Of a stretch of DNA of 64,000 bases, positions 58,776 through 64,000 are shown piece after piece. The stretch is from positions 4,480,001-4,544,000 of the forward strand of contig CBDCJO010000002.1 in the NCBI GenBank assembly GCA_965217865.1, in the 5' to 3' direction. Origin of the DNA: Candidatus Latescibacterota bacterium. GTDB lineage: Bacteria; Latescibacterota; UBA2968; SICM01. Below the pieces are notes generated by a model that ran no database searches, was not told where the DNA came from, and worked only from the letters and a program-made list of their open reading frames with translations. A program made the translations under genes and the position numbers. The stretch's first letter is position 1. Each line of letters begins with the position of its first letter.

Positions 58776-59670
58776 TCAGCTAAGATCGTAGATTGCGTCA
58801 AATCGCTTCCCGGTTTCAACCAGGGTTACCGGGACCTGGGCGACCTCCTCGATTTTATCGATTAACCCCTGGACTCTGGGGGTTATTTTCAATTTGTCCC
58901 GAATATCCGGATCGAGATGATCGCAAAAGGTCAATGCGATTTGGGTGGGACCGTTCAACATCACCGCTTCCTCGAGATGATCCCAGGAAATTCCGCTGGA
59001 TTTCTTCCTGCGGCGTCCGGTCCTCACTCCGAACTCCGCGATGTTTCGGGCATCCTGTTCCTCTTCGGATATTTGAAAAGGAAGCGGTCCTCCGCCAACC
59101 CGGGATGGAAGGGCTTTTACGACGAGTATAACCTCCTTGATATATCTCCAATTCAATCCTACGTCGTCGGCCAGGGCGGCTGTGGTACAATTATCAGAAG
59201 TGCTATAGGGATAGTCTCGGGTTAATGCCAGAGAGAGAAACGTCAAACGGAATTCCGCCTGCGCGACGCCCGTGCCGCTTTGCGTCGAGCCGACTTCGTG
59301 CCGCAAGTGGTTATCCAATTGCTCCTCCTTCCTGTGTTTCGGCAGGATGACGGGGCACCGGAAGTCAACCCGGGCGCGTTTTGAGGTTCCGAACTCTTCG
59401 TCAAACTCGGTGATTTCATTCAGGAATATCTCGGGATCCACCGCCACCCCGCTTCCAACCCGAAGTTCCCCACCTGCAAGGATTCCGGCCATCGGGATCT
59501 GGGTGAGTCTTTATCATTCTTTTGGCATCCAGGTACAGGCTATGTCCTGCATTCGTTCCCGTTCCTGCGCGGACACAAATATCGGCTTTATCCCTCTGTG
59601 CCAGATATGACGCTACTTTGCCCTTTCCCGAATCACCCCAGAACGCATCGACAATAATAGTTGCTCCCAC
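58776..59670 (-). pseudogene. purA: Short-type adenylosuccinate synthetase with frameshift (about 59502) and probable internal deletion (about 59240)
   Basis: WGDSGKGK, NAGH, GSTQSGTG, YPYSTS, SRVGGGP, TGRRRK; the EGxQG segment expected before TFLSL is absent. Confidence 0.82.
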
Positions 59671-59775
59671 TGTATCACCTCCATTTGTGAACAGTTTTCT
59701 AAGCCGACCGATAAAATAAACCATTTCTTACATAAGTAAAATTGATTATATTTATTATGTTGATAAGGATCGCTT

Positions 59776-61412: not shown

Positions 61413-62938
61413 CAGCCTGTTGAAAAAGTGCATTTATGCCAAGATGACTGTTGTCTTTCCTTGTGGTTTGGTCCTATGATATATCAGGTTCAAACTGAGA
61501 AGGGAGGACGAGCAAATGGCAATGGGAAAACGAGGACGACAGAGACAGGAAAACCTGTTCATCGCATCGAACACTTTGGTGAAATCTCCGGGTCATCCGT
61601 TCTACGAGAAGCTGAATCAGGTATTGGGGGCGAACGGCTTCGACGAGTTCGTCGAGGGGCTTTGCCAGCGGTATTACGCTCCTCATATGGGTCGCAAGGG
61701 CATTCCGCCCGGGGTTTATTTTCGGATGCTTTTGATTGGGTATTTCGAGGGACTTGATTCGGAACGTGGGATCGAATGGCGTGTATCTGACTCGCTGACG
61801 TTGCGCCGGTTTTTGGGGTATGCCCTTGACGAACAGACCCCGGATCATTCCAGCCTGTCTCGCATCCGGCATCGGCTTCCCTTGGAAGTTCACGAAGCGG
61901 TTTTCAAGTGGATCCTGAGGGTCTTGTGCAAAGCGGGTCTGGTGAAGGGGAAGACGTTGGGCGTGGATGCTACGACACTGGAGGCCAACGCCGCGATGCG
62001 CAGCATTGTACGCCGTGACACGGGTGAAGGCTACCAGGCATTCCTTGAGAATCTGGCCAAGGCCTCGGGCATTGAAACGCCTACCCGCGAGGACTTGTCC
62101 AAGATCGATAAGAAGCGACCGAAGAAGGGATCGAACCAGGACTGGGAGCACCCGCACGACCCGGATGCCAAGATCGCTAAGATGAAGGACGGTCGCACGC
62201 ACATGGCGCACAAGGTGGAGCACGCGGTGGATCTGGACACCAATGCCATTGTGGCAGTGGCGTTGTCGGGAGCAGATGAAGGAGATACCGAGTCGTTGCC
62301 CTGGACGCTGCTCGAGGCGCCGCTCAATCTCAAGCAGGTCGCGAAGGACGAAAAAGCTGCCAAACGTTTGCACAGACAGCGTATACGGGAGGTGGTTGCG
62401 GACAAAGGATATCATAGCAACGATGTATTGACCAGTCTGAAGCAAGGCGGCATCCGGAGTTACATTTCAGAACCGGATCGGGGACGCCGCAAGTGGAACG
62501 GCCGACGAGATGAGCAGGCCGCGGTATATGCGAATCGACGCCGGATCAAGGGAGATCGCGGCAAGGCCTTGCGCCGAAGTCGTGCAGAACGGGTGGAAAG
62601 AACCATCGCTCACACATATGATACCGGTGGCATGCGCAGGTTGCACTTGAGAGACCGCGGCAATATCCTCAAGCGTTTGCTGATCCACATCGGGGGCTGC
62701 AACCTGGCTCTGCTCATGCGCAAAGTGATGGGCGTAGGTACTCCGAAGGCCCTCCAGGACCTGGCCAAGGCCTTGCAGCGTCTACTGCTCGTCCTACAAT
62801 CACGTTTGCTGCCCTCGGTCACCTTTTTAACCTCTTATCAGCGTCTCCTGCTCAATCTCCTTACCTTGATTTATCTGACCCGCACTCCAGGCGTCTTTTC
62901 CGTTTATGTGCGTTGAAAGGTAGTTCTTCAACGGGCTG
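61413..62938 (+). mobile_element. IS1182-like insertion sequence, 1526 bp
   Basis: Terminal IRs CAGCCTGTTGAAAAAGT / AGTTCTTCAACGGGCTG; TTAG direct repeat at 61409-61412 and 62939-62942. Confidence 0.88.
61516..62916 (+). CDS. DDE transposase (IS1182/IS5-like)
   Basis: PDHSSLSRIR, GVDATTLEANA, DPDA, VADKGY, RVERT. Confidence 0.93.
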   Translation: MAMGKRGRQRQENLFIASNTLVKSPGHPFYEKLNQVLGANGFDEFVEGLCQRYYAPHMGRKGIPPGVYFRMLLIGYFEGLDSERGIEWRVSDSLTLRRFLGYALDEQTPDHSSLSRIRHRLPLEVHEAVFKWILRVLCKAGLVKGKTLGVDATTLEANAAMRSIVRRDTGEGYQAFLENLAKASGIETPTREDLSKIDKKRPKKGSNQDWEHPHDPDAKIAKMKDGRTHMAHKVEHAVDLDTNAIVAVALSGADEGDTESLPWTLLEAPLNLKQVAKDEKAAKRLHRQRIREVVADKGYHSNDVLTSLKQGGIRSYISEPDRGRRKWNGRRDEQAAVYANRRRIKGDRGKALRRSRAERVERTIAHTYDTGGMRRLHLRDRGNILKRLLIHIGGCNLALLMRKVMGVGTPKALQDLAKALQRLLLVLQSRLLPSVTFLTSYQRLLLNLLTLIYLTRTPGVFSVYVR

Positions 62939-63352
62939 TTAGGGATGAAAAACTGTGGAACCGAAAAAATACTTCTGAACCAGGAAACCGAACCGGAATC
63001 CTCCCTCATAAGGTTGAACAACTGTGGCGTTGGTCGTCCGAAACTTTAGATTGGGTCGTCTATTGTCCCGGAAAAGGAGACGTGGCAATGGAGCCACTTT
63101 TTCTCACATTTACTTCTAAATCGGTTTTTGCCTTAAATAAAGGCTGTGACAGTGATTACCATCCTTAAAAAATATAATGCAGGAGTGTCTGATCCACAAC
63201 TCAAATTGGGTCGTCAAAATTGGTTCGGAAGAAGGCTTCCCACCAAAGACGGTTTCTGTTGGGCTTGATTTATAACCTATGATTTGCTATCTTTACTGAA
63301 GGGAATTGTAGATCATTACAGTATTGAGCTCAAAATAGCAGGGATTTAAACC

Positions 63353-63481
63353 GTGATCAAAGGCCGCCGGATATTTCGTATTTTCTCGATTTCAATCACA
63401 GTCGACACAAACGGATTCGTGCGTTCTAATCCGAATCCAAATCGAGATAATTCCGGCACCCAACGGCGGGATCGTTTATGA
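63353..63481 (+). CDS. Putative Asn-rich leader peptide 1 (42 aa)
   Basis: GTG start after AGGGA; VIKGRRIFRIFSISITVDTNGFVRSNPNPNRDNSGTQRRDRL*. Confidence 0.65.
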   Translation: MIKGRRIFRIFSISITVDTNGFVRSNPNPNRDNSGTQRRDRL

Positions 63482-63511
63482 CCTTGAGTCGATAGGTTTC
63501 TTCTAAATCCC

Positions 63512-63550
63512 AACCCGCCGTTGAGTTCTCAACAGCGGGTTTTGTTTTTG
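63512..63550 (+). terminator. Attenuator terminator 1
   Basis: AACCCGCCGTTGAG-tt-CTCAACAGCGGGTT then TTGTTTTT; 5' arm is also complementary to CAACGGCGGG at 63461-63470. Confidence 0.82.
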
Positions 63551-63581
63551 TAAACACCGATATAGAAAGAGTAAAACAGCG

Positions 63582-63716
63582 ATGATCAACAACCTTACAA
63601 GTATCAGCCAAGTCATAATAATGAAGCCCACCGGTTTCAGTGCCCGCCTGAATCCCAATCCTAATTCGAACTTCGATAATTGTGCCATTCGGCGGCGGGC
63701 AGGACCGTGGTTCTGA
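63582..63716 (+). CDS. Putative Asn-rich leader peptide 2 (44 aa)
   Basis: MINNLTSISQVIIMKPTGFSARLNPNPNSNFDNCAIRRRAGPWF*. Confidence 0.7.
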   Translation: MINNLTSISQVIIMKPTGFSARLNPNPNSNFDNCAIRRRAGPWF

Positions 63717-63742
63717 TCAAATCAAAACTTGAGTCCGAATCC

Positions 63743-63782
63743 AGCCCGTCGTTGTTCCGAGCAACGGCGGGCTTTTTGTTTT
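63743..63782 (+). terminator. Attenuator terminator 2
   Basis: AGCCCGTCGTTGTT-ccg-AGCAACGGCGGGCT then TTTTGTTTT; 5' arm can alternatively pair with GGCGGCGGGC at 63691-63700. Confidence 0.85.
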
Positions 63783-63804
63783 CCACAGATAGGAGGATAA
63801 AACC

Positions 63805-64000
63805 ATGAAACGCACTTTGATCTCTGAACTTCCCGGTAAAACCGGACACGCGGTTACCGTTATGGGATGGGTACATACCATCCGAGACCAGAAACGTATG
63901 GTCTTTCTCATCGTAAGGGACCATACGGGCTGCGTCCAGACGGTGCTTGAGAAGGCGCAAAACCCGGAGCTGGCGGAATCCCTTGCTGGCCTGACCCGCG
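63805..64000 (+). CDS. aspS: Aspartyl-tRNA synthetase, archaeal/non-discriminating type (5' part only)
   Basis: AGGAGG RBS; MKRTLISEL..VTVMGWVHTIRDQKRMVFLIVRDHTGCVQ anticodon-binding OB fold; truncated by the window edge. Confidence 0.78.
   Translation, partial: MKRTLISELPGKTGHAVTVMGWVHTIRDQKRMVFLIVRDHTGCVQTVLEKAQNPELAESLAGLTR

Follow-up and report, generated by a model that had tools for sequence, protein, structure and literature searches.

Here we report the architecture of the leader that precedes aspS2, a gene for a short aspartyl-tRNA synthetase, in genome G000 of a Candidatus Latescibacterota bacterium. The leader lies at the end of the window, by which we mean the whole stretch of 64,000 nucleotides that was analysed (G000:C2:4480001-4544000). 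Between a promoter-like element and the gene stand two modules, each with a short Asn-rich upstream open reading frame (uORF), a strand at the uORF 3′ end that can pair with the 5′ arm of a terminator, and the terminator itself. The features, in window coordinates, are as follows.

63265..63293, + strand: putative sigma70-type promoter (TTGATT, 17 nt, TATCTT), inferred from a by-eye reading of the sequence
63353..63481, + strand: uORF1, 42 codons, GTG start, weak Shine-Dalgarno sequence (ORF list and reading)
63461..63470, + strand: module 1 antiterminator 5′ strand (codons 37-40), 9 nt past the last Asn codon
63513..63550, + strand: intrinsic terminator 1 (hairpin and U tract), fold of -17.6 kcal/mol
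63582..63716, + strand: uORF2, 44 codons, ATG start, weak Shine-Dalgarno sequence (ORF list and reading)
63641..63648, + strand: possible protector strand, pairing with 63693-63700 in the MFE fold if the ribosome is absent
63690..63700, + strand: module 2 antiterminator 5′ strand (codons 37-40), 9 nt past the last Asn codon
63696..63707, + strand: Arg-Ala-Gly-Pro codons 39-42, a SecM-like tail and candidate ribosome pause (codon conservation)
63743..63783, + strand: intrinsic terminator 2 (14-bp hairpin and U tract), from terminator scanner and folding
63791..63797, + strand: aspS2 Shine-Dalgarno sequence AGGAGGA
63805..64000, + strand: start of aspS2 (437 aa; the gene ends at window position 65118, past the window), from the ORF and profile matches

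The original prediction of two Asn-rich uORFs of 42 and 44 residues, each with its own terminator ahead of aspS, holds at both positions, as does the complementarity it described between the end of each uORF and the terminator 5′ arm. In module 1, 63461-63470 can pair with 63514-63523 over 10 bp without a mismatch (duplex -19.2 kcal/mol, terminator hairpin -17.6); in module 2, 63690-63700 pairs with 63744-63754 over 11 bp, three of them G-U, with folding energies of -19.1 kcal/mol for the duplex and -23.4 for the terminator. Terminator 2 was listed by a simple terminator scanner that did not list terminator 1, and folding found both. The peptide of uORF1 ends ...SNPNPNRDNSGTQRRDRL, with Asn at codons 20, 26, 28, 30 and 33 and Asp at codons 18, 32 and 40; that of uORF2 ends ...LNPNPNSNFDNCAIRRRAGPWF, with Asn at codons 24, 26, 28, 30 and 33 (plus 3 and 4) and Asp at codon 32. 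The promoter-like element agrees with consensus at 8 of 12 positions, which put it under the scanner threshold and off its list; a similar TTGACT-17-TAT element occupies the same place in G077 and G036, the other two genomes with tandem modules. The contig of a second study spans 63109-64000 with zero letters different.

Two other features of the window were noted in passing. A high-copy insertion sequence (IS; IS1182/IS5-like transposase, below cut-offs) occupies 61516-62938, ending ∼330 nt before the promoter-like element and ∼400 nt upstream of the modules, and has a read depth ∼100-fold over its flank in four runs. At 58776-59724, on the minus strand, lies a short archaeal-type adenylosuccinate synthetase-like gene split across two frames.

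The aspS2 enzyme and its gene set

The aspS2 product scores over the curated cut-offs of PRK05159 (505 bits; cut-off 353) and TIGR00458 (422; 368.4), matches that assign it to the aspartate--tRNA(Asn) ligase family of short archaeal type, and the non-discriminating type of AspRS anticipated downstream of the leader is thus supported at the level of family profiles. His24 and Pro79 fit the signature of Deinococcus AspRS2. Among structures, the Deinococcus/Thermus AspRS2 entries 1n9w/3kfu match at E 1.6e-82, and the closest matches in the PDB are the archaeal AspRS 3nel and 1b8a. The closest named homologue (74%) belongs to a Candidatus Latescibacterota genome, L012, that is the same DNA as G077.

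Genome G000 also carries asnS, a long bacterial aspS, gatB, glnS and tgt, with gatCAB elsewhere, on C1. Of the gene content that had been anticipated, gatB was found, and the expected absence of asnS was contradicted: the genome has an asnS gene, and so do 24 of the 25 tested genomes that carry aspS2 or its leader. This rules out aspS2 as the sole route to Asn-tRNA and makes it a spare or back-up enzyme. The presence of both gatB and glnS means that GatCAB most simply serves Asn. The long AspRS has a His and a Gly residue that we take to be a mark of non-discriminating AspRS, so that it may itself be non-discriminating, which would weaken the need for a spare enzyme. According to PMC4206432, Deinococcus and Thermus have a short archaeal-type second AspRS beside AsnRS, GlnRS and GatCAB; the gene set of G000 is the same as this AspRS2 set, with the specificity of aspS2 read from its sequence.

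As for free asparagine, AsnA was not found in G000, a genome that is 96% complete. Four genes of the AsnB family are over the cut-off; three stand among what appear, by eye, to be polysaccharide genes, and the fourth (C2:4362804-4364321) stands alone and could supply free Asn, which counts against the proposal developed below. In a survey of 40 genomes, 15 of them non-carriers, the 25 with the gene or leader had asnS in 24 cases, gatB in 24 and an AsnB-family match in nine; G099, which is 89% complete, had neither asnS nor gatB.

Conservation and predicted switching of the two modules

An aspS2-type gene was found in 24 of 168 genomes of the phylum, and directly upstream of it in 23 of the 24 lies an Asn-rich uORF ending [PA]-I-[RQ]-R-R-A-G-P and followed by a terminator, in agreement with the expectation that uORF and Asn codons would be conserved among relatives. 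The exception is G001, which has none at this place; there the gene closes an ABC-transporter operon, and it is at the head of that operon that the RNA scaffold stands. A leader pattern written with neither Asn nor AGP terms found 22 sites in 21 of the 168 genomes and none in a reversed control; 21 of these sites precede aspS2, and the remaining one, in G016, has a full leader and no aspS within 1.5 kb. The tandem arrangement is shared by two further genomes, G077 and G036; on the AspRS tree these two and G000 make up a single clade. At 3 of 24 the tandem is the minority state. Module 1 scores 84-89 in similarity against other module 1s and 97 against a scaffold copy before a GNAT cluster in G077, as against 57 for its own module 2; recent tandem duplication is ruled out by these scores, and the tandem instead joins two lineages. 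In G078 a module-1-type leader lies 4 kb upstream, with a ValRS-like gene as well as an IS between it and aspS2. A gene for an 815-aa protein, ValRS-like by eye, directly precedes aspS2 in G078 (C1:4470100-4474340), G084 (C10) and G089 (C1), hinting at clusters of spare synthetases.

A pattern scan of metagenomes gave 15 matches, of which one (L119) is a true member and the other 14, with no Asn patch and no aspS, were set aside as chance. Among 80 loci from a protein scan of a genome collection, this leader occurs only at L012; 17 have a T-box core motif by regular expression and two, both alphaproteobacterial, have a different uORF with NNN. The latter (L077, ∼2310-2500, Pleomorphomonas; L087, ∼2310-2500, Agrobacterium) have a short uORF with three consecutive Asn codons before the same type of aspS and no U-tract terminator, and are possibly cases of translational attenuation.

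The chance of meeting such modules was gauged across the whole genome, where 1089 terminator-like hairpins yielded 25 with an upstream antiterminator candidate, and at least three Asn in the 14 codons before the antiterminator were seen in only two of the 25, namely modules 1 and 2. In random AT-rich stop-free windows of 14 codons (n=36,206), at least four Asn occurred in 0.22% and at least five in 0.014%. Known RNA families did not account for the leader: Rfam gave only five matches at window positions 62900-64000, all to unrelated families at E 4.9-8.3, and none at gathering score in leaders L003, L005, L007 and L012, and no covariance model of the Trp, His, Leu, Thr or Phe leaders, the T-box or the aspS motif matched it.

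Covariation of antiterminator and terminator, a further expectation, was found in module 2, with kin sequences. In an alignment of 15 of the 25 sequences (10 lineage representatives, four more from genus g4, and L119), 95.2% of 165 antiterminator cells are paired, compared with 26-61% in slid controls. Two of the 11 antiterminator pairs changed on both sides among these related sequences, a two-pair count that 46 of 500 shuffles reached, whereas the covariation score was reached by one of 500; in terminator 2, five of 11 pairs have changes on both sides. The module 1 antiterminator is kept in G077 with one G-U change and in G036 with one mismatch, the three sequences having one-sided changes.

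Folding was combined with a footprint model in which the ribosome covers 15 nt from the P site and steric effects are ignored. Both modules have their last Asn at codon 33, and a ribosome stalled there is predicted to leave the antiterminator strand free with 0 nt to spare: for stalls up to codon 33 on the early transcript the probability of the antiterminator is 1.00 in both modules, and two to three codons further on it falls to 0.02 in module 1, while in module 2 the strand is covered. The same model gives Asn-stalled probabilities of 0.67-1.00 in 11 of 11 module-2 leaders and 0.53-1.00 in 3 of 3 module-1 leaders, in line with the trp/his-type geometry first proposed. For the full-length leader at equilibrium the terminator is the favoured fold (0.83-1.00) even when a ribosome occupies the Asn codons, from which it follows that the switch must be kinetic and decided during transcription. 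In classical attenuators, too, the choice of fold is made during transcription.

With no ribosome, module 1 is predicted to fold into the antiterminator and module 2 of G000 into a protector hairpin; the no-ribosome antiterminator probability is at least 0.8 in 8 of 11 module-2 leaders. The default of an untranslated leader would therefore usually be read-through, and a ribosome must occupy the strand for the OFF state. The protector or pause hairpin is not conserved, being confined to G000 and G008 among the module-2 leaders modelled. Many attenuators have no protector hairpin, so only the strict four-segment trp type is excluded by its absence.

We consider it very probable, from these sequence features, that modules 1 and 2 are ribosome-mediated transcription attenuators in series that induce a spare aspS2 of the non-discriminating type when the decoding of Asn, and possibly Asp, codons slows. 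RNA polymerase would start near 63300 with a ribosome trailing it on uORF1. When Asn-tRNA(Asn) is short, the ribosome would stall in the Asn patch with its leading edge just before the antiterminator strand, and the free strand would capture the terminator 5′ arm while the 3′ arm is still within the polymerase, letting transcription continue; when Asn is plentiful, the ribosome would move over the strand and the terminator would form. Module 2 would repeat the test, making the overall leak approximately the product of two leaks; here the ribosome is probably delayed at RAGP, and with Gly in its P site it would lie precisely over the strand. The induced enzyme would make Asp-tRNA(Asn), GatCAB would convert this to Asn-tRNA(Asn), and the shortage would be relieved. 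Counting against the proposal are the weak Shine-Dalgarno sequences at both G000 starts, unlike those of G077; the uORF1 homologues in G077 and G036 are Asn-rich and have strong ones.

The RAGP tail of module 2

All 23 leaders directly before aspS2 end in RAGP within the motif P-I-[RQ]-R-R-A-G-P, and four more obtained with AGP-free patterns (G016, G096, G098 and L119) are all RAGP-ended as well, two of them with Asn in place of the Ile. On a tree of 23 taxa, positions 1-2 of the codons for Ala, Gly and Pro never changed, against 11 changes at position 3, six of them in Ala and four in Gly. Each of the four possible codons is in use for Ala and likewise for Gly, while the three codons after Pro change at every position. 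Selection on RAGP at the protein level is likely in our judgement, and we give a real, functional ribosome arrest at this site an even chance.

The alternative, to which we accord somewhat less than an even chance, is that RAGP is a by-product of the RNA constraints on the scaffold, that the ribosome blocks pairing by passing or at the stop codon, and that both modules are plain classical attenuators. The bases of Arg-Arg-Ala are indeed fixed by antiterminator pairing, and a 3-bp CGG/CCG hairpin from the last Arg to the Pro codon, predicted in 13-14 of 15 sequences, could explain why the Pro codon is conserved. Other leaders on the scaffold end RDGA, REGP, RDGS or WDGP, which makes R-x-G ancestral, and RAGP is absent from the leaders before long aspS genes. 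These constraints leave the Gly codon unexplained, since its positions 1-2 have no conserved pairing partner and yet never changed, while its third position changed to all four bases; the third-position changes in Ala, the free variation after Pro and the RAGP ends of the leaders found without AGP in the pattern likewise argue against a by-product. So does the under-representation of RAGP in bacterial proteomes, as reported in PMC12992588.

The footprint model bears on the same question. A ribosome at RAGP covers the 12 nt of the strand and brings the predicted antiterminator probability to 0.00 in 11 of 11 modules. With the ribosome on the stop codon the probability is 1.00 in 7 of 10, G036 lacking any stop over 50 codons; the model ignores sterics, and a ribosome at the stop may sterically block pairing. 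In module 1 of G077 the stop codon likewise leaves the strand free in the model, yet that module lacks RAGP.

In its C-terminal R-A-G-P and the free sequence after Pro, uORF2 resembles SecM and the RAPP-like arrest peptides, as described in PMC10951299 (for the SecM arrest motif) and PMC12992588. It differs in having Arg rather than Ile before the R and in lacking the upstream F/W/I set out in PMC10951299; across the motif, the SecM residues upstream of Arg (Ile immediately before it, and Phe and Trp-Ile further up) are absent. Nor is it secretory: the aspS2 leaders, of 24-48 aa, have by reading no conserved hydrophobic stretch and no secretory or membrane N-terminal part that could sense force, and the candidate arrest in uORF2 would act within a switch that controls transcription of a synthetase gene. 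If RAGP does arrest ribosomes, SecM-type arrest would have been put to use outside secretion, as a timing part that lowers the leak of an attenuator. Tentatively, module 2 may be a hybrid of two types of control usually regarded as separate, a codon-sensing attenuator turned off through SecM-type RAGP arrest of the ribosome on the antiterminator strand. In three genomes a second, unrelated Asn module from a portable scaffold found across the class would have been added in front of it, which would amount to a two-key switch for tRNA-dependent Asn synthesis.

Signal, scaffold and relation to known attenuators

The Asn patches tell something of the signal. Over 10 lineages and 110 codons they comprise 51 Asn, 16 Asp, 12 His and 10 Pro, and the frequency of Asp and His means that the signal may be Asn plus Asp. 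The response of aspS to a shortage of Asn-tRNA(Asn) that had been proposed would then not be to Asn alone. An Asn-Pro alternation had also been singled out, and this is not conserved: NPNPN is common to G000 and G077 only, and most relatives read NNNDDNNP, although the Pro two codons before the antiterminator strand is kept, with one change on the tree. With few exceptions the patch codons of module 2 have the form NAY (Asn, Asp, His and one Tyr), and their second-position A is almost invariant. NAY codons are the set read by queuosine tRNAs, and with tgt present the sensing of queuosine would be a conceivable trigger; we leave it at low odds as the His enrichment falls mostly in one clade, and drift under a purine-poor, unpaired constraint is not separable from it.

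The scaffold itself is reused at other loci. With a less strict pattern, 40 distinct sites (43 rows) were obtained in 33 of 132 genomes of the class, against seven matches in the control, and 30 of its loci plus 10 fetched regions were read. Tandem leaders rich in Leu, Val and Thr stand before an acetolactate-synthase-type gene (ilvB) in G002 (C7:9985-10347) and G001 (C203:172-577), so tandem use of the scaffold is a recurrent feature of this family. Thr-rich scaffold leaders precede thrS in four of six genomes (that of G118 is not Thr-rich and that of G162 is unreadable), and 11 genomes of family f2 (L161-L171) have Asn/Asp leaders ending RARWRWP-stop, without RAGP, before a long bacterial-type aspS. 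The identity of the amino-acid codons therefore follows the downstream gene on one and the same scaffold, which is the strongest indirect sign that the uORFs are translated sensors. Scaffold leaders with no amino-acid cluster precede GNAT/methyltransferase and ABC-transporter genes, and possibly sense compounds that stall ribosomes; they lie at:

G000:C2:4924900-4925110: cluster-free scaffold leader
G077:C1:1006828 and 2102342: cluster-free scaffold leaders
G111, G112 and G001:C30: cluster-free scaffold leaders

Sites in G083, G087 and G090 and one in G078 look like plain terminators. Many scaffold leaders end Pro-stop, GP-stop or PG-stop. With its swapped patches (Asn, Thr, Leu/Val, Gln or none) the scaffold offers a natural series on how an attenuator is retuned, and where a gene is poorly annotated the codon patch in front of it hints at the probable substrate.

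A rival reading is that the same switch answers to another trigger, aspS2 being an auxiliary synthetase that is switched on by a block of the housekeeping AspRS or AsnRS, such as a natural inhibitor of synthetases might cause, or by a drop in Asp-tRNA, and not mainly by a lack of asparagine. This would alter the trigger and not the attenuation mechanism, and we regard it as unlikely, although several observations favour it. Asp is the second commonest patch codon (16 of 110); the gene is patchy within genera, with 14 of 21 genomes in g4 and 3 of 15 in g13; it adjoins a second ValRS-like gene in G078, G084 and G089 and ends an ABC-transporter operon in G001; and clusters of GNAT and methyltransferase genes are also preceded by the scaffold. 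Attenuation likewise controls an auxiliary TrpRS of Streptomyces that is resistant to an antibiotic. The Streptomyces homologues of aspS2 (L058, L059, L066, L070, L072, L079, L080 and L084) have T-box leaders in 8 of 8 tested cases, at E 1e-8 to 1e-16 and below the Rfam gathering score, and the specifier in the two alignments shown is GAC (Asp); an AAU (Asn) specifier was ruled out by these Rfam alignments. Weighing against an auxiliary role are the 51 Asn codons to 16 Asp and the pattern in g4, where an AsnB-family match is absent from 14 of 15 carriers and present in three of five tested non-carriers, as a biosynthetic role would have it, these genomes being kin and so not independent. On either trigger, the Streptomyces T-boxes indicate that control by tRNA charging recurs for this type of gene.

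It is highly improbable that the terminators are constitutive, the upstream copies of their 3′ arms fortuitous and the uORFs untranslated: weak start signals in G000, the dominance of the terminator at equilibrium and an IS ending ∼400 nt upstream speak for such a reading, but it leaves unaccounted for an Asn patch conserved at a fixed distance, the strong Shine-Dalgarno sequences in relatives, the conservation of codon pattern, the amino-acid clusters that match the downstream gene elsewhere and the singling out of just two of 1089 hairpins genome-wide.

Attenuation by a leader peptide is the preferred reading. Classical systems of this kind are trp, his, leu, ilv and pheA, with pheST for a synthetase gene. 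The aspS2 leader shares with them a short uORF with clustered cognate codons, an antiterminator strand at its 3′ end, and an intrinsic terminator between uORF and gene that is mutually exclusive with the antiterminator; it differs in its Asn (with Asp) codons, its two modules in series, the lack of a conserved protector hairpin and the conserved RAGP of module 2. In Clostridium acetobutylicum the indirect Asn pathway is reportedly under an Asn T-box, and a 2013 study is said to have found one T-box reading two tRNAs. Pathway, redundancy (AsnRS, a spare non-discriminating AspRS and GatCAB) and logic would be the same there, with the proposed difference that the aspS2 sensor is a translating ribosome, and not direct binding of tRNA. 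The uORF, antiterminator and intrinsic terminator of the leader-peptide model are set out in PMC2659441, passages of which list a 'tRNA synthetase leader' for aspS of Shewanella and say nothing of an Asn peptide. The Salmonella mgtCBR leader (PMC3641672) likewise has two uORF-based attenuators, which sense different signals (ATP and proline) additively, whereas both aspS2 modules are Asn-coded and each has its own intrinsic terminator. Tandem uORF attenuators, as in mgtCBR, and T-box control of the Asn pathway are already known. No Asn leader attenuator or RAGP-tailed attenuator was found in open-licence PMC and bioRxiv texts. The older comparative-genomics surveys of attenuation by Vitreschak, Seliverstov and Lopatovskaya may hold a predicted Asn leader in their tables. 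If the proposal is true, control by leader peptides would extend to Asn (with Asp) and to the indirect tRNA pathway, and the Asn T-box would have a counterpart that works through the ribosome.

A last locus on the module-1 scaffold was noted in G000 itself (C2:4570520-4570800, minus strand; L143/L185), where a Gln-rich leader, with a region of five Gln in a row and its own promoter-like element and terminator, precedes the gene at C2:4568457-4570487. The 676-aa product of that gene is MetRS-like but below MetRS cut-offs, and the genome has two other MetRS genes. The phylum has three homologues, and in one of them (G097) a leader with QQQ and a terminator recur, which suggests that this MetRS-like protein answers to a shortage of Gln-tRNA.
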